Shown: positions 110 to 64,000 of the stretch, in pieces
Numbering within the stretch: position 1 is the stretch's first letter
How the letters are laid out: each line of letters begins with the position of its first letter
Assembly (NCBI GenBank): GCA_003482855.1
Contig: DMXO01000002.1
Location: 28,060-92,059 of the forward strand
DNA from: Candidatus Magasanikiibacteriota bacterium
GTDB lineage: Bacteria; Patescibacteriota; Patescibacteriia; Magasanikbacterales; UBA922
Length of the DNA stretch: 64,000 nt
Direction of reading: 5' to 3'
Program-made: the position numbers and the translations under genes
Notes under the pieces: model-generated
Database searches by the model: none
Seen by the model: the letters and a program-made list of their open reading frames with translations, nothing else
Told to the model about the DNA's origin: nothing

Positions 110-3094
110 TTACTTTTCCACAACTATACCTGAAGCCGTCGCGGTATTATTATCTTCAATAACAGCCATGCTTGAACCTATTCTTCCAAACTCAACAAAT
201 ACTAAAGCAAAAATAATAGCAAGTGCAAATGGAGCAATAAGTGATACGTAATTTCGTTTATTCGGCTTGAAGTACTTAAGTAATAATGAATTTGTCACGA
301 CAGATATTGAACTAAATGCCATTGCAAGTCCTGCCAATTCTGGTTTTAGCACTAATCCAAGTCCGGCAAACACACGCGCCGCAATCGGAATTCCCATGAC
401 ATTATAGAATAATGCAAAAAACATATTTTGACGTATCTTGCCCATGGTTTCACGGCTCAGCTGAATTGCATTCAAAACATCTCGTAAGTCATTCTTGATA
501 ATCACTATTCCACCCGTTTCCATAGCCACATCAGTTCCACCACCCATAGCAATTCCCAAATCCGCTTGTGCCAGAGCAGGAGCGTCATTGATGCCATCCC
601 CTACCATAGCGACTTTCTTACCAGTGTCTTGAATTTTCTTGACTTCTGTTGCTTTATCTTCAGGCAGCACTTCGGCAAGCACATTTGTAATACCAACTTG
701 TTTCGCTATAGCATCTGCAGTGCGCTTGTTGTCTCCTGTAATCATGTATACCTCAATTTTATTTTTTTGCAATTTTTGTATTGCCTCAAGAGAGCTTTCT
801 TTCAATGTGTCAGCTACTGCGATTAAACCGATTACCTGGGTTTCGTCGGCAAGTATCATGACAGTCTTGCCTGCTTCTTCAAGCCGACGAACCTTACGTT
901 CTGCTTTTTCTATATTTAAATTTAACTTATCACTAATGAGTTTTCGATTGCCAAGATAATAAACAGCAGTATCTACTTTTCCCTCGACTCCATGACCCGG
1001 GATAGCTCTAAAGTCAGTAACTGGTGCAATATTAATTGATTCCTCTTCAGCATATCTTACAATTGCTTCAGCAAGTGGATGCTCAGATGACTTTTCCAAT
1101 GACGCACTAATGCGTATGATTTCTTCTTCATCCAATGTGGATAGACTAATCATATCAGTAACTTCCGGCTTTCCATTTGTCAAAGTTCCGGTCTTATCAA
1201 ACACAATTGCTTGAATTTTATTTGCGGCTTCAAGTGGTTCTCCACCCTTGATAAGTACTCCATATTCAGCACCTTTGCCAGTTCCTACCATAATGGCAGT
1301 TGGTGTTGCGAGACCCAATGCACACGGACATGCAATCACAATAACTGAGGTGAAGGCCATGAGTGCAAATGAGAGACTGGCACTCAAAAAGAAAAACCAG
1401 ACAACGAATGTGAGTATGGCTAACACTAATACAATCGGCACAAACCACGCAGAAATTTTATCAGCCATTGCTTGAATGGGAGCTTTGGATCCTTGTGCTT
1501 CCTCAATCAAACGAATAATTTGTGCCAATGCTGTCTCACTACCGACTTTGGTAACTTCAAACTCAAAGCTGCCGTGTTTATTGATAGTCGCGCCAATCAC
1601 CTTGTCCCCGACGTTTTTTTCTGCAGGGATGCTTTCTCCCGTGAGCATCGATTCGTCAATTGACGAATTGCCTTTTTTGATAATTCCATCAACAGGAATC
1701 TTTTCACCGGGCCTGACCATAATAATATCTCCCTTTTGTACTTGGTCGATTGGTATATCCACTGTAACACTACCCCTAATCACACGCGCAGTTTTTGGCT
1801 GCAAACCCATGAGTTTTTTAATCGCATCAGAAGTCTTTCCTTTTGCTTTTGTTTCAAGCCATTTACCAAGGATCACAAATGTAATCAGGAATGCCGCAGT
1901 TTCAAAATATAATTCAGGAATTTTTGCGCCATTGAGTCCGATAAGCGTGCTATTTTTAATCGCATAACCAAGAAATTGCCACAAACTATACAAGAATGCT
2001 GTGCTTGTGCCAATTGCAATCAAACTATCCATATTGAATGTCTTCATCTTGAGACTGCTCCACATTCCCCTATAAAATCCTGCACCAATATAGAACTGAA
2101 CAGGTATGGTAAGTAGAAGTGAAACAATGCCAATGTATGGCAACAGTACAGCTCGTAGTGGCATAAACGCGAAAAAATCAAATAACATGAAATACAACAT
2201 TGGGATACTCAAACCCAAAGCAACAAAAAACTTCCTTGAATATGCTTTTATTTCCTTTTCCTTTCTTTTGCGTTCTGCATCCGGATCAGCAGTATTTGCG
2301 AGTTCTGCCCTATACCCTGCCTTTTTTACTGCAGTAAGTAATTCATCCACGTTTGACTTTGATGAGTCAAATACGACATGGGCCTTTTCCGCATTAAAAT
2401 TGACATTCGCTTGTTTGACTCCTGCAACTTTTTTAAGATTTTTTTCAATGATTAGTGCGCATGATGCACAGTGCATGCCAGATACGATAAGGTTCGCCTG
2501 TTCATCGCCGGATTTTCCCGAGGTATTGATTTCCGTGCTCGGTAAATAAGACTGTTCGCTTGAGGCATTTGGCAATCTAACATTTTTTTCCTGTGATACA
2601 TCTTGGGAAAATGTATTAAGCAGTTGATTAATCTTTGATGCCTCGATTATGTTTTGGATCGTATGTTCAATATTAGGATGCCCTTGTGGAATTTCAAACT
2701 CGCCTTTCTTAATATGGTCAACAGTCCCTTTGAATGCTGGTTTTCCCTGATCGTTTGAGAACTCTCCGTCAGCGACCACAGAACTTTCCAACTTTATTTT
2801 TATGGGTGAATGAGCATCAACCATTTTTTTGGTAATAATAACATCATCGTGAGGCTGATTCTCAGATGATAATCCCCCGCCAGAGATAACGGTTGCTGTA
2901 TATCCGGCTCGAGAAATAGCGCTAATTATTTCATGTTCGTCAACAGTGTTATCTATCGACACCTCACCCATCCCGTTTTTGGAGTCAATATGAATCTTTT
3001 TCACGTCTGGAATCTCGCGCAATTCCATTTCTATGATCCTTTCGCATGATGCACAATGCATCCCATCAATTTTTAAGTGTAGTGTTCTTTCCAT
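110..3094 (-). CDS. copA: Copper-translocating P-type ATPase (P1B-type) with two N-terminal HMA domains
   Basis: 994 aa ORF. Two GMHCASC metal-binding motifs at the N-terminus, a CPC transmembrane motif (ACPCALG), DKTGTLT phosphorylation motif, [10 protein letters not shown] hinge. Confidence 0.93.
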
Positions 3095-16199: not shown

Positions 16200-16228
16200 T
16201 TGACAAAAACATATAAATTTGCTAACTT
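16200..16228 (+). promoter_or_regulatory. Sigma70-like promoter P1 of GC-rich island A (TTGACA-17-TAACTT)
   Basis: Perfect -35 hexamer, exactly 17-nt spacer, TAnnnT -10. Confidence 0.45.
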
Positions 16229-16276
16229 AATGTCCGTATTCATCCGCCAAATGGTGGGTTTCTCAAAGGAGGACCG

Positions 16277-16489
16277 ATGTCCCAGGACTCGCGCCACCGC
16301 CAGATCAGGCTCGTGACCCCCAACCCCCGCCGGAACGAGGTCAACACGCATATGTGCGAGCTGACCACCTGTGTCTGTCGCGGCAGGCGGGCAGCGTTGA
16401 CCTTCCGTCATGTGGAAGGCACACTCGCTTGGCTCTGCCCGAGCGCCAGCCGGCAGATCGACGCCACCACCTCGCGGCGGGTGGGCTGA
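16277..16489 (+). CDS. Island A gene 1: small Cys-containing protein (70 aa), unknown function
   Basis: AAGGAGG SD 4 nt upstream of ATG. High GC with G/C-rich third positions, in contrast to the AT-rich backbone. Cys at CELTTCVC and WLCP. Confidence 0.5.
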   Translation: MSQDSRHRQIRLVTPNPRRNEVNTHMCELTTCVCRGRRAALTFRHVEGTLAWLCPSASRQIDATTSRRVG

Positions 16490-16502
16490 CAAGGTCAACA
16501 GA

Positions 16503-16621
16503 GCCACAAGTCGAAGGAGGGAACGGTTTTGCAAGCGTGTATGCACGCCTTCAAAACCCAAAAGCCTATATGGCACACAAGGGAGGACGCATCGCTTGTA
16601 GATCCGCGTCCTCCTTCGACT
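16503..16621 (+). other. Structured inverted-repeat element unit 1 (agtcgaaggagg ... cctccttcgact)
   Basis: Perfect 12-bp terminal inverted repeat enclosing about 90 nt with internal hairpins. Left arm contains an SD-like GAAGGAGG. Begins right after the stop codon of gene 1. Confidence 0.55.
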
Positions 16622-16682
16622 ACTATCTTCAGCAAAATGATGAGAATAGTAGTAAAAACCACTCCAAGTAGTACTCGGCGTG

Positions 16683-16711
16683 GTTTTTTTGTTGACAAAT
16701 TCTTCTCTATA
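16683..16711 (+). promoter_or_regulatory. Sigma70-like promoter P2 of island A (TTGACA-17-TAATCT)
   Basis: Perfect -35, 17-nt spacer, TAnnnT -10. Embedded in an AT-rich spacer between the two GC-rich genes. Confidence 0.45.
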
Positions 16712-16762
16712 CATTAATCTCTCACTTGTCGCTTCAACCGCCATCACCACAGGAGGTGAAAG

Positions 16763-17161
16763 ATGGCAGGTAGCATGGTTTCGGTGAACATGGTACTCAT
16801 GGGCAAAGACTTCCAGATGGAAGTCACTGGGGTTCTCCACTCGTCGCGTGCGATGCGACAGAATGGGGGATCCCGACGTGGGACCGTCCTGATCGGCCGG
16901 ATCATCCAGGGCGAGATGACCGTGATGGACGAGGTGTGGGTGCTCAGGAACTTCGACCCCAACACCGAACCGATCCACGACAGGGTCATCAGGATCGAGA
17001 CCAGTCGAGCCTCCAGAGACAAGGCTGGCGTGAACACGATGGTCGGGGTCTGTCTGAGTGTCTCTTCCATGGGCGACATCATCGGGCGCGCGGCCGCCCG
17101 CGCCTACGACGCGGCTATGATCGAGCAGCGGCGCCAGATGCCGCCGCGTCCGGTGGCGTAG
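16763..17161 (+). CDS. Island A gene 2: 132-aa protein resembling a standalone EF-Tu domain-II-like beta-barrel
   Basis: AGGAGGTG SD 4 nt upstream. GTVLIGRIIQGEMTVMDEVWVL ... RVIRIETSRASRDKAGVNTMVGVCLSV pattern parallels EF-Tu domain 2 (GTVVTGRVERG..VG.EVEIV ... AGDNVGVLLRGV). High GC3. Confidence 0.5.
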   Translation: MAGSMVSVNMVLMGKDFQMEVTGVLHSSRAMRQNGGSRRGTVLIGRIIQGEMTVMDEVWVLRNFDPNTEPIHDRVIRIETSRASRDKAGVNTMVGVCLSVSSMGDIIGRAAARAYDAAMIEQRRQMPPRPVA

Positions 17162-17280
17162 CCACAAGTCGAAGGAGGGAGTGGTGACGATGGCAACAGC
17201 CTCAATCACCGCACGGCCCGATATTACATCGGGCAACGCAACAAGGAAGGCGCGTACGTTCATCGCGCCCTCCTTCGACT
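17161..17280 (+). other. Structured inverted-repeat element unit 2 (same 12-bp arms as unit 1)
   Basis: Starts at the stop codon of gene 2. Same gccacaagtcgaaggaggga left end and cctccttcgact right end as unit 1, with a different interior that has its own hairpins. Contains ATG 17190 after the SD (37-codon ORF running into AT-rich DNA). Confidence 0.55.
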
Positions 17281-17312
17281 GTTTTGATTATCAAATTTGG
17301 TAATAAGAATAG

Positions 17313-24319: not shown

Positions 24320-24345
24320 AAAAAATCCACGCTATATACGTGGAT
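24320..24345 (-). terminator. Rho-independent terminator of GC-rich cassette B (atccacg ctatata cgtggat + T-run on minus strand)
   Basis: Perfect 7-bp stem, 7-nt loop, followed on the minus strand by TTTTTT. Confidence 0.6.
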
Positions 24346-24391
24346 CTATGTTGGAAACTAAGAGGGCTGTGGACGCTGCGATTGTAGCCCT

Positions 24392-24730
24392 CTACTTGTT
24401 GCCGGCCTCGGCGAATTCACGGAGCAGGGACATGGCGAGATAGCCCGCGAGCCACCCGACCTGTCCCATGCCAGTGCGCCGACTGTCGACGTCATGGAGC
24501 ATCCGCCCGACGATCTCCTCGACCGTCTGGAGACCCGGCGAGAATGTTATCGCATCCTGCGAACGCATCTCGATGAACTGAGCGGCCTCCTCCTCACTGT
24601 GGAAGAACCATCTCATGAGCTTGGGGAGAAGGTGCTCGGGAACAAAACTCTCCTTGAACCGGGAGAGGCACCCTTGCGCCAGCTCGTAGCGCGCCCCTGT
24701 CGTGAGCTTACCGATCGCGTCCATGGGCAT
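24392..24730 (-). CDS. GC-rich cassette B gene: 112-aa hypothetical protein
   Basis: High-GC ORF with G/C-rich third positions, flanked by a consensus-like promoter and terminator. No recognisable family. Confidence 0.45.
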   Translation of the reverse strand: MPMDAIGKLTTGARYELAQGCLSRFKESFVPEHLLPKLMRWFFHSEEEAAQFIEMRSQDAITFSPGLQTVEEIVGRMLHDVDSRRTGMGQVGWLAGYLAMSLLREFAEAGNK

Positions 24731-24776
24731 TTATCCAATTTCCATCGCAGCGCCCTCTTAATTTCCAAAACATGAC

Positions 24777-24805
24777 TTTATATCATGATTAATACAAAAA
24801 GTCAA
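24777..24805 (-). promoter_or_regulatory. Sigma70-like promoter of cassette B (TTGACT-17-TATAAA, minus strand)
   Basis: Read on the minus strand: TTGACT at 24805-24800, 17-nt spacer, TATAAA at 24782-24777. Confidence 0.45.
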
Positions 24806-48561: not shown

Positions 48562-48590
48562 TAAAACTCCCATCTAAGGGAGTTTTTATT
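48562..48590. terminator. Hairpin terminator (aaactccc atctaa gggagttt + T-run)
   Basis: 8-bp stem followed by TTATTTTT. Confidence 0.55.
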
Positions 48591-48669
48591 TTTGAACCGG
48601 CGCCGCTTCGATCGCCGGTTATTTGTGCGTTCAAAGCGGCGGTGCTCTTTGCATGCCGCATCCTTTCCG

Positions 48670-49158
48670 TCAGCCCGCCGCGTTGTACACGACGAGGATG
48701 ATGGTCGCCAGCGTGTGCAGGTACTCCGCACGCACGACCACAGTGAACTGGGACGAGTCGTTCACCGACCAGATCGGAAATCGACGGTCGACGGGAAATT
48801 CGTCCCCTTCGGCCTGCTTACCACGAAGGTCATAGACCCCCGGGATGGTCGCGCGCCAGAAGGGAACCACGTTGCCCGGGTTGAGCACGCGATCCGAGAC
48901 GACCGAGACGACCCATTCCGTACTGTCGTGGTACAGTCGGGTCATGGTGATTTCGATCCCCTTGTGGGAGATGCGCGCGATCGGACGGACGAACCCACCG
49001 AGCACACGCTGTCCGATCACTTCGGGTTCCCCGATCTTGAGTGGCCAGGACAGTGTGGACTGTTGCTCGAACGCCTTTTCCACCGTCCTCACTGCCATGA
49101 TGTCGGGATGGGTGCTGTTGCACCTTACGACCCACTGACTGAGCTTCTTGGGGGACAT
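48670..49158 (-). CDS. GC-rich cassette D gene: 162-aa hypothetical protein
   Basis: High-GC/high-GC3 ORF. AAGGAGAA SD 4 nt upstream of ATG 49158. Own promoter and hairpins (48595-48641) after the stop. The track ORF begins 10 codons earlier. Confidence 0.5.
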   Translation of the reverse strand: MSPKKLSQWVVRCNSTHPDIMAVRTVEKAFEQQSTLSWPLKIGEPEVIGQRVLGGFVRPIARISHKGIEITMTRLYHDSTEWVVSVVSDRVLNPGNVVPFWRATIPGVYDLRGKQAEGDEFPVDRRFPIWSVNDSSQFTVVVRAEYLHTLATIILVVYNAAG

Positions 49159-49202
49159 ATTCTTCTCCTTTCCCCCACGTTGACACACACAAAGAGCATT
49201 TC

Positions 49203-54153: not shown

Positions 54154-54182
54154 TTGACAAAATGGCATTTTTGTGATATTAT
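54154..54182 (+). promoter_or_regulatory. Sigma70-like promoter of cassette E (TTGACA-17-TATTAT)
   Basis: Perfect -35, 17-nt spacer, 5/6 -10. Confidence 0.5.
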
Positions 54183-54214
54183 CGCCACGGATTTTCCACC
54201 ACGTGAGGCCAAAA

Positions 54215-54367
54215 ATGGCCACGACCACGACCCTCGTGTGCATGGAGTGCGGACACCCGGAGATGGAGGTCATCGAATACGGTGACCACGAGGAACGGGT
54301 CAAGTGCCCCAAGTGCGGGCACGAAGCCTCGGTTCCCCCGGGCGCTCAGCCCGGTACTCCGGTCTAG
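54215..54367 (+). CDS. GC-rich cassette E gene: 50-aa zinc-ribbon mini-protein
   Basis: GAGG SD 6 nt upstream. CMEC...(18 aa)...CPKC. Strongly G/C-biased third codon positions. The track ORF start at 54173 lies inside the -10 box, so ATG 54215 is preferred. Confidence 0.5.
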   Translation: MATTTTLVCMECGHPEMEVIEYGDHEERVKCPKCGHEASVPPGAQPGTPV

Positions 54368-54393
54368 CACCGGACAAAACACCCCACACGCGG

Positions 54394-54502
54394 CCCCGGG
54401 CAATCGTGCCCGGGGATGATGTCATGAAAAACCACCCAATGACTATCTGAGTTCTCAACGTATATTTGAGAATTGGGATAGGAGGTTTGGGTGGTTTTTT
54501 GT
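54394..54502. terminator. Hairpin ccccgggca atcg tgcccgggg plus long bidirectional terminator (aaaaaccaccca ... tgggtggtttttt)
   Basis: 9-bp perfect GC stem directly after cassette E. 12-bp A/T-flanked stem serving both cassette E and the secA 3' end. Confidence 0.55.
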
Positions 54503-54540: not shown

Positions 54541-57417
54541 TTACGCCCCATGGCACTTCTTATACTTCTTTCCACTTCCGCACGGACATGGATCATTGCG
54601 CCCTACTTTGTTGCCTGAATCATCTCTGGTTTTGCCTTTCACGATACCTGCCTCGCCATCACTTGTCTTTTGTGCGCCTTTGAGTGTCATCTTGTCATCA
54701 GCCATGATACTTGGTGTGAGTTGCAAACCAACATTTATCTTAAAAACCGTATAGGCAACATCTTTTTGAATATTGGCAAGCAATTGATTGAACAGATGAA
54801 AACTTTCTTGTTTGTATTCGACAAGTGGATCACGCTGACCATACCCACGCAGACCAATACCCTGACGCAAATAATCTATAGCCACGAGATAATCAACCCA
54901 CAAATTATCTATAGTACGAAGCAAAATACTTTTTTGAATTTCTGCCTGTATCTGGTGTGGCTCTTGTACACCTGCTGTCTGTTGTGCAATAGCTTTCATG
55001 AATTCGCTATATTGATGACGCGCTTTGGCTACGAGAAATGATATGAGAGCATCTCGTCTCTCCACGTCACTCTTGTTGTCACTCCCTGATTGTCCAAAAG
55101 ACAAAATTTCTTGCCTATCTTCTGCTGACAAAGGAAACATTGTTTTTATGGTCTCATATATTTCTTTTACATTCCAATCATACTTATTCACTGCGCTATC
55201 TCCATTTGCATCTGTCTGTGGATTGGTATGATATGACACAACAAATTCAATCTCACCTTCTATCATCTCCATGACCATGTCATGAAGCGATTGATATGAG
55301 AGGTCATTTGTATCTTCCAAATTTGTTGTTGGTTGTGATGCAGTCTCTACGTCACCATCAATAATATTTGTTGATTCTTTTTTTGCTAAATCAAGAATTT
55401 TTCTTCTTTTCTTATAAATTACCTCGCGCTGTTTATTGAGGACGTCATCATATTCAAGCAAATGCTTGCGCGTATCAAAATGAAATGATTCCACTTTTTT
55501 CTGAGCGCTTTCGAGCATACGCGTAATAAATTTTTGTTCAATAGGCATATCCTCAGGCACTTTGAGCCTAGTCATCATGGACTTGAGCCTGTCTCCAGCA
55601 AAAATACGCATGAGATCATCCCCTGTTGATACAAAGAATTGGGTCTCACCGGGGTCGCCCTGACGCGCGCTACGACCGCGAAGCTGATTGTCTATACGAC
55701 GAGATTCATGGCGTTCTGTACCCAGTACAAAGAGACCGCCAGCATCTTTAATCTTTTGTTCATCTTCTTTTGTCGCTCCCGGTCCGCCAAGCTTGATATC
55801 CACACCACGCCCAGCCATATTAGTTGCAAGAGTCACTGCTCCTGCACGACCAGCTTGTGCAATTATTTCACCTTCTCGTTCATGATTCTTTGCATTGAGA
55901 ATCTCATGTTGTATGCCATTGATGAGGAGATATTGACTAAGTTCTTCATTTTTTTCTACAGAAATAGTACCAATAAGTACTGGTTGACCTTTGGTTTGAC
56001 ATTCTTTCAATTTTTCTATAACTGCCTTGTACTTACCTGCCTCAGTTCTATAAATACGATCAGAGTGATCTATACGCTGGTCAGGACGATTGGTAGGTAT
56101 GACTACGACTTCGAGTCCATAAATTTTATAAAATTCTTCTTCTTCGGTCTTGGCAGTACCCGTCATGCCAGACAATTTTTTGTACATGCGAAAAAGATTT
56201 TGAAATGTAATCGTTGCAAGTGTACGGCTCTCACGCTGAATTGCGACATTTTCTTTTGCCTCGATTGCCTGGTGCATGCCTTCGGAATATCTGCGACCTG
56301 GCATCTTGCGACCAGTAAATTCATCAATGATAATAATCTCGCCATTGTCTACAATATAGTCTTTGTCGCGTTTGAAGAGTACTTCTGCTTTGAGTGCCTG
56401 CTCTACATGGTGCACGAGCTGTATGCCTCCCTCAACATAAAGATTGTCTACATGCAACCAATTTTCAAATTTGGAAATACCTACATCAGTAAGTGTTGAC
56501 GCCCGCATCTTCTCATCCACATTATAATCTTCGCCTTCCTTGAGTTGTTTCACCCATTTGGCAAATTGATAATATTGTTCAGTCGCTTCTTCTGCTGGCG
56601 CGGATATGATGAGTGGCGTACGTGCTTCATCTACAAGTATGGAATCTATTTCATCGACAATCGCATAATGCATTTCTGATCCTGGTCGCATGACCATTTC
56701 ATCAAGACTCTGCACCATGTTGTCACGTAGATAATCAAAACCAAATTCATTATTGGTACCATACGTGATATCACAACGATACGCTTCTTGTCTGCTCGCT
56801 GTTCTCAAAAATTCATTTTCTACTTTAAAACTTCCTTTCTCGACTTCGGACTTCGGACTTCGGACTTCAACCACCTCATCGGAATCTGAAGTCTGATTGC
56901 TGAAGTCTGAAGTCTGTTGGCTATCATACACAAACGACACGCGCTGATTTTGAATAATACCAACTGATAACCCCAAAAAATCATAGATCTTCCCCATCCA
57001 CACTGCATCACGTTTTGCCAAATAATCATTCACGGTCACGACATGTACGCCTCTGCCTTCAAGAGCATTCAAATATACTGGCAAGGTTGCGGTAAGTGTC
57101 TTGCCTTCGCCAGTTCTCATCTCAGCAATCCTGCCCTGATGAAGTGCAATGCCACCAACAAGCTGTACATCATAATGGCGCATGCCCATGACGCGCTTGG
57201 TTGCTTCACGTACCGTAGCAAAACTTTCGGGCAATAGATCATCCAAAGACTCGCCTTCTGCAAGACGTTTCTTGAATTCAGACGTCTTGGCTTTCAATGC
57301 ATCATCAGACAATTTTTCAAATTCTGGCTCAAGACTATTTATTTTGGCAACAAGGGGATCAAATACTTTGAGCATTTTTTTGTTTTGATCACCAAAAATT
57401 TTATGAAGAAAAGACAT
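54541..57417 (-). CDS. secA: Protein translocase ATPase SecA
   Basis: 958 aa, DEAD-like motor motifs, C-terminal zinc finger [14 protein letters not shown]. Confidence 0.93.
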
Positions 57418-57550
57418 ACATTAAAACTTAGAAAGGCCTAGGAAGCTAAGAAAGCTCAGAAGACTCGTGAAGATTAAAAATCTAAAAAGCGACTTAAATC
57501 TCATATTAAAACCCTCAAAGTATAGCATCTATACAACATCTTGTCCATCC

Positions 57551-57579
57551 TTGACTTTTTACCATTTTTAGTGTACTTT
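57551..57579 (+). promoter_or_regulatory. Sigma70-like promoter P1 of island F (TTGACT-17-TACTTT)
   Basis: 5/6 -35, 17-nt spacer, TAnnnT -10. Confidence 0.4.
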
Positions 57580-57613
57580 ATGGGCAGAACTTTAACCCTT
57601 TGGGGGTCCTCCA

Positions 57614-57877
57614 ATGGTCAGGAACAACTGCCCCGCATGCGGGGCACAGGTCGAACACGGCACGCTCTGTGGCGCGTGCGGTCACCGGCTGGGTGAAGAA
57701 CCCGGCAACCGGCACTGCACGTGCACTGGCAACGTCTGCGTCCGCCTCCGGACGCAGATCGTCGTCCGCACGGTCGAGGTCGCTACGACCAAGGCCGACG
57801 GGACGGTGGTGCCCCACGGTACCGCCAGCTTCCTCTACGACCCCACGACCGGCCGGTCGCACCTGACGACCGGCTGA
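57614..57877 (+). CDS. Island F gene 1: 87-aa zinc-ribbon protein
   Basis: CPACG...(8 aa)...CGACG N-terminal zinc ribbon, additional CTCTGNVC. High GC3. GGGGG SD-like 7 nt upstream. Confidence 0.45.
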   Translation: MVRNNCPACGAQVEHGTLCGACGHRLGEEPGNRHCTCTGNVCVRLRTQIVVRTVEVATTKADGTVVPHGTASFLYDPTTGRSHLTTG

Positions 57878-58021
57878 CCCTCTGTCCCGCGCCCGACGCT
57901 CCCCGCGTTCGTGGGCCGGCGCGTGCTGTTCTGCGTATTTCGTGCATCAGCCCCCCTGGTGCATGAGGTACGTAGACGCGCGCGCCGGCCCTCCTTCCTC
58001 ATTATTAAACCAAAGTTACTC

Positions 58022-58050
58022 TTGACAAAGAGTGACTTTTTTGTTATTAT
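58022..58050 (+). promoter_or_regulatory. Sigma70-like promoter P2 of island F (TTGACA-17-TATTAT)
   Basis: Perfect -35, 17-nt spacer, 5/6 -10, in an AT-rich spacer between the two GC-rich genes. Confidence 0.5.
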
Positions 58051-58080
58051 CCGCCCGCTTCAAACAACCCGGGGTTCAAG

Positions 58081-58239
58081 ATGTACTGTGCCCACTGCGG
58101 CCTCATGCTCGTCATCGATATCGAAGGACATTGCCCCATCTGCGGGACAAAAATCGATGAGGCGTCGCCCTATGTGATGCCTGCGAGGCCGCCGATCGAC
58201 ACCGCCCCTACCCCCTCCGGACAGGGACAACATACCTAG
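58081..58239 (+). CDS. Island F gene 2: 52-aa zinc-ribbon mini-protein
   Basis: CAHCG...(12 aa)...CPICG, Pro-rich tail. High GC3. Confidence 0.45.
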   Translation: MYCAHCGLMLVIDIEGHCPICGTKIDEASPYVMPARPPIDTAPTPSGQGQHT

Positions 58240-58304
58240 TATCTTGCGTACGGAATTGAACATTCCAACGCGAGTGTATGTTCGTCCCGTTCATCCCTAA
58301 AATC

Positions 58305-58336
58305 AAAACCACCCTAAAAAATCGGGTGGTTTTAAA
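58305..58336. terminator. Bidirectional terminator (aaccaccc taaaaaat gggtggtt + T-run)
   Basis: 8-bp stem flanked by A/T runs. Serves island F and the hpf 3' end. Confidence 0.55.
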
Positions 58337-58358
58337 ATTCAAAATTTCAAATTCAAAA

Positions 58359-58703
58359 TTATTCCTGATATCCTTTTACCTCTCTTAATTCTTCCTTGTC
58401 TCTATTACGCATCTTCCCTTTCATCTTTTCCAATTCTACTTTGAGATGATCCTTCACTTTGTCAATCGCCTTGTACAAATCCTCAGATTCTTTTTTAATA
58501 TTAAATGCCTTGCCTGGCAGACCAACATTGAATTCCGCAAAGTAAATTTCTCCTTTGTTATGATGATTGGAATCCATGCCAACAATAATATCTATACTTA
58601 CAATATGATCAAAATATGTTTGCAGATCTTCTGCCTTTTCTTGTGCATACTGCCGTATAGCATCGGTCATTTCTAGACCTTTTGTTTGTACTTCAATAAG
58701 CAT
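58359..58703 (-). CDS. hpf: Ribosome hibernation promoting factor (short HPF/RaiA type)
   Basis: 114 aa, MLIEVQTKGLEMTDAIRQYAQEKAEDLQTYFD ... beta-alpha-beta-beta-beta-alpha pattern of sigma-54 modulation protein family. Confidence 0.85.
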   Translation of the reverse strand: MLIEVQTKGLEMTDAIRQYAQEKAEDLQTYFDHIVSIDIIVGMDSNHHNKGEIYFAEFNVGLPGKAFNIKKESEDLYKAIDKVKDHLKVELEKMKGKMRNRDKEELREVKGYQE

Positions 58704-63497: not shown

Positions 63498-63603
63498 ATT
63501 CTAGAACAAAGATATTCTCAATCCCAGAACTCCTCGGTGTGATGTGGCACACCGGAAAATCTCCTTCCTTATACCCGCCCACATGCGGGCGTCTCCCGAC
63601 CTC

Positions 63604-63807
63604 TTACGGCTTGGGCGCCTCGCCAGTGGCACCCTTCGCCGGTTCTTCCACTGTCTCCTTCGGGGGAGACGGCGGACGAGGCGAGGACACATGTGTCTTG
63701 CCCGCATGGCGAGCCCTCGTGGCTGCGAGGCCACAGAGCCCGTCGAGCTGACGCTCGGGCCGTGCAGGGCCGTGCCCGAACTTGGTGAAGCCAGAACCCG
63801 GCTTCAT
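63604..63807 (-). CDS. Island G gene: 67-aa Pro-rich small protein, translationally coupled (ATGA overlap) to the upstream partial gene
   Basis: High GC3 ORF. Its ATG overlaps the TGA of the partial CDS 63804-64000. Confidence 0.35.
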   Translation of the reverse strand: MKPGSGFTKFGHGPARPERQLDGLCGLAATRARHAGKTHVSSPRPPSPPKETVEEPAKGATGEAPKP

Positions 63808-64000
63808 TTCTTACCCTTTCCGCGAGCCCGTCTGAGGGCTCGAGACACATCCGTCAACGGAAACCGACCCAATACCTCTGGTTCGCGATTCCAGATGGTG
63901 TTGTGGTCGTAGACGACCACCGTTTCTCCACCACTCTTGTGCACATCAGCGACATCATCGAGTCGCACTGCGCACCGTTCGAAGTGGGGACGGCGGTTGT
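63804..64000 (-). CDS. Island G partial CDS (C-terminal 65 codons; gene continues beyond the window end)
   Basis: Open minus-strand frame ...HKSGGETVVVYDHNTIWNREPEVLGRFPLTDVSRALRRARGKGKK* with no stops and high GC. Confidence 0.4.
   Translation of the reverse strand, partial: NRRPHFERCAVRLDDVADVHKSGGETVVVYDHNTIWNREPEVLGRFPLTDVSRALRRARGKGKK

Follow-up and report, generated by a model that had tools for sequence, protein, structure and literature searches.

REP- and BIME-type stem-loops in 3′ untranslated regions (UTRs) stabilize the upstream mRNA in E. coli. Phage morons, the concept of Hendrix and Juhala, are autonomous promoter-ORF-terminator units of deviant base composition that are inserted between conserved genes. 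The moron concept has been used, for example, in PMC4378225. A third group of small genetic units encodes the C(P)XCG zinc-finger micro-proteins, such as HVO_2753 and HVO_0758 of Haloferax volcanii and Brz of Halobacterium (PMC6562870, PMC10716476, PMC11241148, PMC2253796). Those described so far work as regulators or adaptors, with roles in stress adaptation, motility and transcription (PMC6562870, PMC10716476, PMC11241148, PMC2253796), and several predicted C(P)XCG proteins bind no zinc (PMC11241148).

The genomes of CPR bacteria (Patescibacteria) are tiny and full of unannotated sequence, and a literature search for small zinc-ribbon proteins or GC-rich islands in Patescibacteria, including Magasanikbacteria, found none. 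Here we analyze a 64,000-nucleotide stretch of a Candidatus Magasanikiibacteriota genome (the window) and, within it, a GC-rich island termed island F. We consider it to be, with a probability of about 60%, a conserved, fast-evolving and clade-restricted array of C(P)XCG micro-proteins, which have promoters of their own and are expressed from hairpin-stabilized, GC-rich mRNAs, and no recent foreign cassette.

Two Cys-rich mini-genes between secA and hpf

Island F (57566-58298) has a GC content of 61% in a window of 39.7% GC. It consists of two unannotated Cys-rich mini-genes, F1 and F2, both on the + strand, which lie between secA (54541-57417, - strand; identified from the ORF list and its Pfam SecA domains) and hpf (58359-58703, - strand; matching Pfam Ribosomal_S30AE), bounded more precisely by the terminator of hpf and the promoter of secA. 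The called genes flanking the island within ±10 kb include secA, hpf, murB and secDF; no phage genes were found in this range, and no integrase, transposase or reverse transcriptase appeared among the called genes or Pfam lists. The island sequence is 100% identical in eight public contigs from several assemblies and samples and is thus no one-off assembly chimera. All available strain-level assemblies are identical here. Three public contigs break inside the island, and no variant alleles were seen at these contig ends; the odd tail of one contig (L005), considered as a population variant, was rejected as a fold-back assembly artefact.

F1 (57614-57877, + strand) encodes the 87-aa protein of the original prediction, with CPACG (residues 6-10)-x8-CGACG (19-23) and a CTCTGNVC stretch. 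Its overall layout is CxxC-x9-CxxCGH-x10-CxC-x4-C, followed by a predicted three-strand β-meander that ends in TGRSHLTTG. A Shine-Dalgarno-like GGGGG (57602-57606, + strand) is located 7 nt before the ATG, and homologues have GGAG or GGGAG in its place at equal spacing to the start. In the AF2 model, residues 48-87 reach a pLDDT of 77-91 and the Cys-rich half stays below 50; a Foldseek search of the PDB with this model yielded no significant match, only generic β-meanders. F2 (58081-58239, + strand) encodes 52 aa with the expected knuckles CAHCG (3-7) and CPICG (18-22), whose Cys pairs are C3..C6 and C18..C21. The spacer between the knuckles is x10 rather than x12 as initially described, and the tail is Pro-rich and poorly conserved.

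Both genes differ sharply from their neighbors in third-position GC content (GC3), with 0.86 for F1 and 0.72 for F2 vs 0.31-0.35 for secA, hpf and murB. For F1, GC1/2/3 amount to 0.62/0.58/0.86, the frame-specific GC3 rises up to 0.93, and the GC3 periodicity is confined to the + frame. Exact-protein look-ups found neither F1 nor F2 on record, gene callers having left both uncalled. Public callers either missed the two genes or called antisense ORFs instead; they disagree with each other, and most call nothing.

Searches for homologues and families returned little beyond close relatives. A word-indexed homologue search with F2 gave no match, a profile search with F1, gene 3 and gene 4 recovered a single homologue of F1 (P0001), and a metagenome scan with the F2 alignment yielded two loci, both from the Saanich Inlet lineage. 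F2 had no match in IMG/VR viral contigs, and no Pfam, PHROGs or NCBIfam family reached threshold for the mini-genes. The Pfam zinc-ribbon families tested were DZR_2 (PF18912), Zn_ribbon_3 (PF13248) and DZR (PF12773); the sub-threshold matches were to DZR_2 and Zn_ribbon_3, with best Pfam scores of 18.3 bits for F1 and 17.6 bits for F2 vs gathering cut-offs of about 27. PDB profiles likewise gave weak knuckle matches that are not significant, namely aS34 for F2 (E = 0.005) and bL32 and eL40 for F1 (E = 0.05). The Cys spacing itself is compatible with a zinc ribbon, as had been proposed, and fits C(P)XCG knuckles. Judging from these motifs, F1 and F2 probably bind zinc, and the mini-proteins might bind metal or nucleic acids.

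Promoter-like elements, terminators and structured RNA

In line with the original prediction, each mini-gene is preceded by its own promoter-like element, and both elements are conserved in relatives. The description of both as consensus promoters holds for F2 only. P2 (58022-58050, + strand) reads TTGACA-17-TATTAT with a TG extension, matches the consensus at 11 of 12 positions and is kept in two related contigs, L012 and L093. P1 (57551-57579, + strand) has the correct spacing between TTGACT (57551-57556) and TACTTT (57574-57579; 17 nt), with a -10 hexamer that matches TATAAT at 3/6 positions only, and falls below the threshold of our consensus scan. In three other contigs (L012, L093 and L013), however, the P1 -35 hexamer is invariant and the -10 hexamer reads TA[C/T]TTT, while the 5′ UTR downstream of this conserved block diverges. 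A promoter-like site of secA (57519-57547, - strand; TGGACA-17-TATACT with TG) is arranged back to back with P1. In total, the consensus scan found six promoter-like sites in the region vs 1.9 ± 1.2 in shuffles.

The F1 transcript is probably ended by an AT-rich, terminator-like hairpin with a T-run (58012-58045, + strand; 12 pairs, loop GACA, tail TTTGTTATTA), whose loop and tail double as the -35 element and spacer of P2. This overlap of terminator and promoter is kept in L012 and L093. Downstream of F2, the proposed shared bidirectional terminator was found at 58305-58337, where AAAACCACCC-N9-GGGTGGTTTT (58305-58333) has T-runs on both strands; it is predicted to be common to F2 (+ strand) and hpf (- strand).

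The GC-rich palindrome with 11-bp arms reported earlier between the genes proved to be the base of a far longer stem-loop, H1, in the 3′ UTR of F1 (57913-57991, + strand). H1 spans 79 nt with about 36 pairs and a CCCCC loop, has a predicted folding energy of -73.9 kcal/mol (z = -10.5; 0/200 shuffles as stable) and is followed by the pyrimidine tract CCCTCCTTCCTC. Its outer-stem pattern occurs once in the window vs 0 expected. Homologous hairpins are found in L012 (z = -7.1) and L093 (z = -6.8); across the lineages, the inner stems differ in sequence and retain pairing (CAUCAG/CUGGUG, UCGCCA/UGGCGA, UCCGUC/GACGGA); a naive alignment of the three lineages shows double changes at six pairs. At least 120 matches to the H1 outer stem in viral contigs were rejected, as all of them lie in phages of ~66% GC in which a GC-only palindrome arises by chance.

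The second 3′-UTR stem-loop, T2 (58243-58274, + strand; GCG..GGAAU-UGAAC-AUUCC..CGC), follows F2 and is kept in L012 and L093 according to the alignment; the surrounding region (58240-58345) folds with z = -4.5. In contig L018, a loop similar to that of T2, CUUGAAC, lies inside a 3′ hairpin. Structure also extends into the F1 message, which folds with z = -5.35 (-3.05 for its L093 counterpart) and has, within the coding sequence, three perfect hairpins at least 8 bp long vs 0.12 expected. These coding-sequence hairpins are not conserved in L093, and the F2 coding sequence folds unexceptionally (z = -0.47). At gathering score, the only Rfam 15 covariance-model match in the window was a tRNA-Gln, and none was found in 57500-58400 even at E ≤ 1. 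The raiA motif, an idea prompted by the neighboring hpf, was dropped as Rfam gave no match.

Conservation and divergence of the locus

The locus recurs in two other Magasanikbacteria lineages, represented by L012 and by L093/L092/L013. They share the order P1, gene, H1, terminator/P2, F2, zero to two further F1-like paralogues, T2 and bidirectional terminator. L012 and L093 carry one or two extra Cys-rich paralogues, and in both the F2 stop overlaps the start of another Cys-rich gene; the downstream paralogues show such stop/start overlaps as ATGA. L012 lacks F1; in its place, an unrelated GC-rich ORF lies between P1 and H1, which are both conserved. Conservation of the ORFs in other copies, set beforehand as a test of the prediction, was found for F1 in L092 and L093 and for F2 in L012 and L093.

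The full-length F1 homologue P0001 (contig L092) shares 50% identity with F1 (E = 5e-16), and its L093 copy differs from it by one residue. All seven Cys and the C-terminal TGRSHLTTG are kept, although three of the nine terminal codons differ, synonymously only. For F1, dN/dS is 0.50/0.85 (0.59), and the substitutions by codon position (33/31/38) show a weak coding pattern. F2 and its homologues in L012 and L093 share 14 invariant columns, including 4/4 Cys; dN/dS is 0.22-0.34, and core substitutions follow pos3 > pos1 > pos2, as fits coding. At the sequence level, these comparisons show that the mini-genes are under purifying selection and indicate that F1 and F2 are real genes. Since recognizable F1 or F2 occurs in three independent lineages only, the covariation and dN/dS statistics are thin.

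For secA, dS is 1.59 between the window and L012 and 0.89 between L012 and L093; the mini-genes have dS values of 0.85-1.5, with synonymous sites between lineages near saturation, and a non-synonymous rate 6-8 times that of secA. Within the close clade, divergence of the locus parallels that of secA and hpf, a pattern that points to vertical descent and against acquisition, the frame in which the island had been placed. Across lineages, mini-gene GC3 remains at 0.61-0.87 vs 0.21-0.35 for host genes, and at the equivalent site of deeper lineages it is 0.75-0.83 vs 0.31-0.47. Sequence comparison thus shows that GC-richness persists despite the turnover of synonymous sites. A GC3 near 0.8 in a genome of GC3 ~0.3, with saturated synonymous sites, is not predicted by ordinary amelioration theory, and mRNA stabilization offers no obvious explanation for it.

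When mapped onto the secA tree, GC-rich islands in the hpf-secA gap are distributed patchily, and many Magasanikbacteria have an AT-rich gene or nothing there. This patchiness is as compatible with exchange or gain as with loss; together with the turnover in gene content, it leaves room for cassette-like exchange.

The proposed theme of CxxC mini-proteins applies to the secA-hpf locus, where it recurs in L018, L024, L025, L012 and L093 (syntenic GC-rich mini-genes are zinc ribbons in L018 and L024 and carry a CxCxxC motif in L025), and does not extend to GC-rich cassettes in general. Two or more CxxC motifs occur in seven of 19 island ORFs across the clade, and the other islands of the window encode unrelated orphans. 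The statement that F1, F2 and the protein of cassette E are unrelated was borne out, as comparison found no relation beyond the knuckle motif. Island C is kept in synteny in L013, where the homologue is uncalled; a homologue search with the island-C protein returned only the self-match.

Origin and function of island F

In the proposed mechanism, P1 and P2 would fire independently, and the F1 message would end at H1 and the weak terminator embedded in P2. H1, T2 and the GC-rich, hairpin-rich message would shield the short mRNAs from 3′-exonucleolytic decay and insulate both units from one another. F2 would fold around zinc via its four Cys, F1 via four Cys and the CxC-x4-C/His site. Both could then serve as small modules with an adaptor or regulator role, binding a macromolecular partner, be it RNA, DNA or protein, with the C-terminal β-strand of F1 (...TGRSHLTTG) as a likely interaction surface. 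The idea of a SecM-like arrest peptide for secA was discarded, since the array and secA are divergently transcribed.

The island might instead be a cassette-exchange hotspot, in which mobile mini-genes move among Magasanikbacteria or arrive from a GC-rich pool of plasmids or phages not yet sampled, entering by recombination at the joints P1, H1, P2 and T2 like integron cassettes or morons. Its GC-richness would then stem from the source pool or from GC-biased gene conversion at a recombination hotspot. The ORF replacement in L012, which runs from after the P1 -10 hexamer to the stop with P1 and H1 homologous, argues for such exchange, as do the varying paralogue number (0 to 2), the patchy GC-island state, the promoter, terminator and deviant composition of each gene, and the three contigs that break inside the island. 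Cassettes A1 and A2 in the window similarly share conserved palindrome arms while their loops and ORFs differ, and pS between L012 and L093 is higher for F2 and gene 3 (0.65-0.77) than for secA and hpf (0.52-0.56). Yet called genes within ±10 kb include none of the recombination enzymes sought, H1 is single-copy in the window and lacks attC core sites, and no homologues occur in viral contigs, PHROGs or GC-rich organisms. Moreover, F1 and F2 have diverged to the same order as host genes, and the strain-level assemblies are identical. We regard exchange as unlikely but far from negligible. A recent import from a donor of high GC content, for instance an actinobacterium or its phage, is largely refuted and far less probable. 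In its favor, the island has 61-70% GC, with a codon usage like that of such a donor, while the genome has 40% GC, and the only phage tblastn matches, limited to the CxxC knuckle (E ≥ 0.02), came from Microbacterium phages. Against it, the same genes, hairpins and AT-rich promoters occupy the same site in lineages with a secA dS of 0.9-1.6, conserved AT-rich promoter segments are interleaved within the island, blastn against phage records found no DNA match, searches of 1.8 billion representatives and 5.8 billion clusters found no donor homologue, and island C is likewise syntenic in L013.

Two further readings concern what the island encodes. Structured non-coding RNAs could be the functional products, and the ORFs a mere by-product of the scarcity of stop codons in GC-rich sequence. 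The exceptional folding of H1 and of the F1 message, the three hairpins within the F1 coding sequence, stems that still pair despite sequence differences, a promoter and terminator that exactly bracket the GC-rich part, and open antisense frames would all suit this explanation. It is nevertheless improbable given that all Cys and the C-terminal peptide are kept through synonymous changes, that dN/dS is below 1 with strong frame-specific GC3, that Shine-Dalgarno-like elements and ATGA overlaps are in place, that the F1 coding-sequence hairpins are not conserved in L093 and the F2 coding sequence is not unusually folded, and that Rfam gave no match. A dual role as coding mRNA with functional 3′ hairpins may apply. 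Still more remote is the idea that the antisense ORFs (94 aa, 57578-57862; 67 aa, 58060-58263; both - strand) are the real genes. Exactly these ORFs are called on JGI and Logan contigs, and their frames are free of stops in every lineage. However, their GC3 is 0.64 and 0.54 vs 0.86 and 0.72 in sense, they lack a promoter-like site or Shine-Dalgarno element, P1 and P2 point the opposite way, conservation follows the sense-strand CxxC motifs and C-terminus, and callers disagree, most calling nothing. We give this idea practically no weight.

With the conserved micro-protein array as the preferred reading, standard gene callers systematically miss or place on the wrong strand a conserved micro-protein family at this locus, so that a real share of the CPR proteome could go unseen in GC-rich islets. 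The locus is also a natural test case for GC-biased gene conversion vs RNA-level selection vs hidden gene flow. More tentatively, Magasanikbacteria may harbor an undescribed compartment of dozens of autonomous, hairpin-rich, fast-evolving GC-rich orphan micro-protein units, many of them zinc ribbons, in which GC is actively maintained against a mutational pressure towards AT while ORFs are swapped between promoter and hairpin joints without a dedicated integrase. Candidate forces would be GC-biased gene conversion at cassette-exchange hotspots and RNA-level selection, and of its units the secA-hpf array would be the one resolved best. If such joints do mediate ORF exchange, this would constitute a simple cassette system that needs no integrase.

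Comparison with known systems

One close likeness is to C(P)XCG micro-proteins. F1 and F2 are very small and built on two or more knuckles, which are kept in their homologues, and like described members they are of a kind often missed in annotation and often forming small transcription units of their own. The length limit of below about 70 aa accommodates F2 (52 aa) and is exceeded by F1 (87 aa). Unlike the described members, with which they share no detectable sequence homology, F1 and F2 form a tandem array of fast-evolving paralogues in a CPR bacterium, with a composition radically off that of the host genome, and F1 adds a third Cys cluster and a C-terminal β-meander domain.

As in phage morons, each mini-gene has its own σ70-type promoter and terminator (by consensus match only) and a short ORF, the composition is unlike that of the flanking genes, and the island lies between genes that in some relatives are direct neighbors or enclose something different. 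In contrast to morons, island F sits between the chromosomal housekeeping genes secA and hpf outside any prophage, is not sporadic but conserved across species and diverging along with them, and has no phage homologue.

Integron cassettes resemble the island in that a short ORF is in each case followed by an imperfect palindrome 60-140 nt long, that the stem is kept although the ORF and, in part, the loop vary (H1 in three lineages; the A1/A2 palindromes), and that the ORF in L012 is replaced between conserved joints. Island F differs in lacking an integrase among the called genes within ±10 kb, attI and the R″(RYYYAAC)/R′(GTTRRRY) cores, which are absent from the H1 arms GGGCCGGCGCG.../...CGCGCCGGCCC. 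Integron cassettes are also mostly promoterless, whereas each gene of island F has a promoter and terminator of its own, and the islands of the window are scattered over 64 kb instead of forming one array. H1, finally, recalls REP/BIME elements as a very stable, GC-rich stem-loop between a stop codon and the terminator or next promoter, where by analogy it could block 3′-to-5′ exonucleases; unlike these elements, it is single-copy rather than a member of a dispersed repeat family and, at 36 bp, far longer.

A GC-rich locus between secA and hpf

Six sharply bounded GC-rich islands (58–70% GC) lie in the window, which averages 39.7% GC. Island F spans 57566-58298, between secA (54541-57417, −) and hpf (58359-58703, −), and carries F1 (57614-57877, +; 87 aa) and F2 (58081-58239, +; 52 aa). 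The proteins of the flanking genes were matched exactly on groundwater metagenome contigs (ENA ERZ909580, 275 kb; JGI 3300009031, 540 kb; NCBI GCA_001783195.1), and a secA-based scan of species-representative genomes identified the host as Candidatus Magasanikbacteria (CPR/Patescibacteria), with the nearest representatives at 79% SecA identity. Eight public contigs, which come from several different assemblies and samples, carry island F at 100% identity, so it is real sequence and not a chimera. Three independent assemblies (L004, L005, L006) end inside the island, at about 58177-58222; the L005 end is an artefact in which the sequence folds back palindromically on itself at the bidirectional terminator. 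In another contig (L013) the end lies ~200 bp from secA, on its upstream side. Such breaks at GC-rich islands may reflect strain heterogeneity or a loss of coverage related to GC content. The 3′ end of the window secA (54541-54600) retains the SecA C-terminal zinc-binding motif, so that a Cys motif is also encoded by the host in AT-rich coding DNA.

The two ORFs, their Cys motifs, two promoter-like elements, an inverted repeat and a terminator were all found where the original prediction had placed them, with some corrections. F2 carries both CAHCG and CPICG, but separated by ten residues (CAHCG-x10-CPICG) instead of twelve. A consensus promoter had been claimed for each gene: P2, upstream of F2, is one (TTGACA-17-TATTAT with TG, 11/12), but P1 of F1 (TTGACT-17-TACTTT) matches only 3/6 positions of the −10 hexamer and fell below the threshold of our consensus promoter scan. 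The 11-bp hairpin arms exist but are the base of a 79-nt hairpin (H1, 57913-57991) whose stem of about 36 pairs closes on a CCCCC loop (−73.9 kcal/mol, z = −10.5). P2 overlaps a second hairpin (58012-58045), which is AT-rich and terminator-like and has the −35 hexamer in its loop.

F1 and F2 are conserved across lineages

In 69% GC DNA, ORF length is weak evidence because antisense frames are open too. None of the public gene callers reports F1 or F2 on the identical contigs; they call antisense ORFs of 94 aa (57578-57862, −; L002 10842-11126) and 67 aa (58060-58263, −; L003 3744-3947), or nothing. The case for genes on the + strand therefore comes from cross-lineage comparison. When 1.8 billion representatives were searched exhaustively with HMMER, a single full-length F1 homologue came back, P0001 (88 aa, 50% identity, E = 5e-16). 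It keeps every one of the seven Cys, as well as His24 and the TGRSHLTTG at the C-terminus, where three of nine codons differ, synonymously only. F2 homologues retain all four Cys and the MLVID core, with core substitutions ranked by codon position as third > first > second. Nei-Gojobori dN/dS is 0.59 for F1 and 0.22-0.34 for F2, and GC3 periodicity (up to 0.93) is confined to the + frame. Our conclusion from these sequence comparisons is that both F1 and F2 are unannotated protein-coding genes that evolve fast.

The same locus occurs on the P0001 contig (L092) and on a 191-kb Saanich Inlet contig (L093), in the order secA (←), P1, F1, H1, P2, F2, gene3, gene4, the 3′-UTR stem-loop T2, bidirectional terminator and hpf (←). 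F1 is preserved in both, and F2 in L093 and a third lineage, L012. Gene3 and gene4 are F1 paralogues sharing the pattern CxxC...CxxCGH-x3-E-x2-G-x3-CxC-x2-C, and each begins in an ATGA overlap with the stop codon of the gene before it, in an operon-like manner. Four deeper Magasanikbacteria lineages (L018, L024, L025, L028) carry, at the same site, GC-rich mini-genes with their own TTGACA promoter, long 3′ hairpin and terminator. Two of these mini-genes encode zinc ribbons and another one a CxCxxC motif, and several finish with a similar ...[DET]GR-x2-4-[TSN]G stop motif.

Several records in this comparison (L020, L024, L025, L031-L034, L046, L071) are TPA MAGs titled ‘uncultured Gammaproteobacteria bacterium’. 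They encode SecA 52-70% identical to that of the window, and L020, L024, L025 and L071 group among Magasanikbacteria on the secA tree; judged by sequence, these labels look wrong.

GC-richness is persistent

In the window, GC3 is 0.31-0.35 for host genes and 0.72-0.86 for the mini-genes; in L012 the two values are 0.27-0.31 and 0.62-0.67, and in L093 they are 0.21-0.24 and 0.61-0.73. For secA, dS is 1.59 between the window and L012 and 0.89 between L012 and L093; mini-gene dS (0.85-1.5) is of the same order, so the locus co-diverged with its host in this clade as synonymous sites were turning over. Syntenic mini-genes of the deeper lineages likewise have GC3 of 0.75-0.83 versus 0.31-0.47. Within island F, conserved AT-rich promoter segments alternate with GC-rich parts, and the GC-rich part is the transcribed part as predicted from promoter and terminator positions. 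No GC-rich organism or phage in the collections searched yielded a homologue. The original interpretation is borne out in part: the mini-genes are real and conserved, with zinc-ribbon motifs and their own promoters. The locus is not a recent acquisition. GC-richness persisting across co-diverged and deeper lineages is a lasting property that calls for an explanation, which could lie in selection on the RNA, in gene conversion biased towards GC, or in ongoing exchange with some GC-rich pool that has escaped sampling. We consider this long-term upkeep of GC3 near 0.8 within a genome of GC3 near 0.3 the most interesting feature of the locus.

The content of the locus does turn over. L012, the 79%-SecA relative, has P1, an unrelated GC-rich ORF, H1, P2, F2, gene3 and T2: the stretch that begins just past the P1 −10 and runs through the stop codon has been swapped, with both flanks homologous. 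The replacement (2867-3019, −; 50 aa, MMKLLKIVSARPVF...GHLMLGG; GC3 0.80) fits exactly into the space between the P1 block and H1, both conserved. Paralogue number varies between lineages, and the GC-island state is distributed patchily over a rough secA NJ tree. In many Magasanikbacteria the hpf-secA gap is empty or is occupied, on the strand of secA, by an AT-rich gene of 112-220 aa (in L015, L016, L017, L019, L020, L071 and L081, a conserved hypothetical replacing the GC-rich mini-genes). These patterns would fit a site of ORF swapping by cassette exchange, which we nevertheless regard as unlikely: no integrase and no prophage context was found among the genes called within 10 kb on either side, and H1 has no attC cores. 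Lacking the integrase and attC cores of an integron and the prophage context of a moron, the locus is neither in the strict sense.

Conserved RNA elements

H1 is single-copy within the window and matches no Rfam family; its position and architecture are conserved in all three lineages (z = −10.5 in the window, −7.1 in L012, −6.8 in L093). Its outer stem (GCCGGCGCG/CGCGCCGGC) is conserved and its loop C-rich; the inner stems differ in sequence but keep pairing (CAUCAG/CUGGUG, UCGCCA/UGGCGA, UCCGUC/GACGGA), with double changes at 6 pairs in a naive alignment. T2 (58243-58274) is conserved too. By position and stability only, we read both as candidate 3′-end stabiliser/insulator hairpins.

The whole F1 message is also unusually structured (z = −5.35 in the window, −3.05 in L093), and its CDS contains three perfect inverted repeats with stems of at least 8 bp, versus 0.12 expected (57629-57646, 57735-57758 and 57852-57874; 9, 10 and 8 bp). 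These internal stems are lineage-specific and could stem from selection or template-switch mutation. The last encodes the conserved TGRSHLTTG; in L024, the homologous ...TTG codons by eye pair instead with sequence just past the stop codon. F2 CDS structure is ordinary (z = −0.47).

Other islands of the window

Five further islands (16219-17293, 24330-24777, 48577-49187, 54163-54464 and 63510-64000, the last extending to about 64091 on contig L001) share the anatomy of island F: a TTGACA-17-TAnnnT promoter in AT-rich sequence leads into a GC-rich 5′ UTR and ORF (GC3 0.72-0.87), and a GC-rich 3′ hairpin is followed by an AT-rich terminator. Searched against Pfam, PHROGs and NCBIfam, their proteins (70, 132, 112, 162, 50 and 67 aa) gave no match at threshold. 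The island-C protein (162 aa; 48670-49158, −) appeared a singleton in a 5.8-billion-cluster search. In the Saanich Inlet lineage, however, a clear uncalled homologue (L013 8499-8978, +; 159 aa, GC3 0.76) lies in synteny some 5.5 kb past secA, so at least one other island is conserved and persistently GC-rich. Two palindromes of ~115 nt (16502-16621, 17160-17280), each 3′ of adjacent cassettes with unrelated ORFs, have conserved arms (AGCCACAAGTCGAAGGAGGG... / ...CCCTCCTTCGACT) and different loops. The arms resemble Shine-Dalgarno and anti-SD sequences, and the 3′ arm is also complementary to the ribosome-binding site of cassette A1.

Across the entire window, high GC3 goes together with CxxC...CxxC in just three ORFs: F1, F2 and the cassette-E ORF (54215-54367). 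Compared with one another, they share nothing detectable beyond CxxCG. A Cys-rich theme does exist at the secA-hpf locus, but the GC-rich cassettes taken together do not form a zinc-ribbon set (two or more CxxC in only 7/19 island ORFs).

Relation to known small zinc proteins

F1 and F2 matched no family at threshold in Pfam, NCBIfam or PHROGs, giving only generic sub-threshold zinc-ribbon matches; PDB profile searches returned weak knuckle matches to bL32, eL40 and aS34 (E = 0.005-0.05). An AF2 model of F1 from a two-sequence alignment was unconfident in the Cys-rich half and predicted a three-strand beta-meander for residues 48-87 (pLDDT 77-91), with the conserved C-terminus as last strand; Foldseek found no significant match to this model in the PDB. 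The best-supported putative mechanism is that F1 and F2 would act as zinc-stabilised binding modules expressed from autonomous, hairpin-stabilised mRNAs. Among described proteins, F1 and F2 come closest to the one-domain C(P)XCG zinc-finger micro-proteins, which have been studied mostly in Haloferax (PMC6562870, PMC10716476, PMC11241148) and include Brz of Halobacterium (PMC2253796); the likeness is one of motif and size, not of homology.
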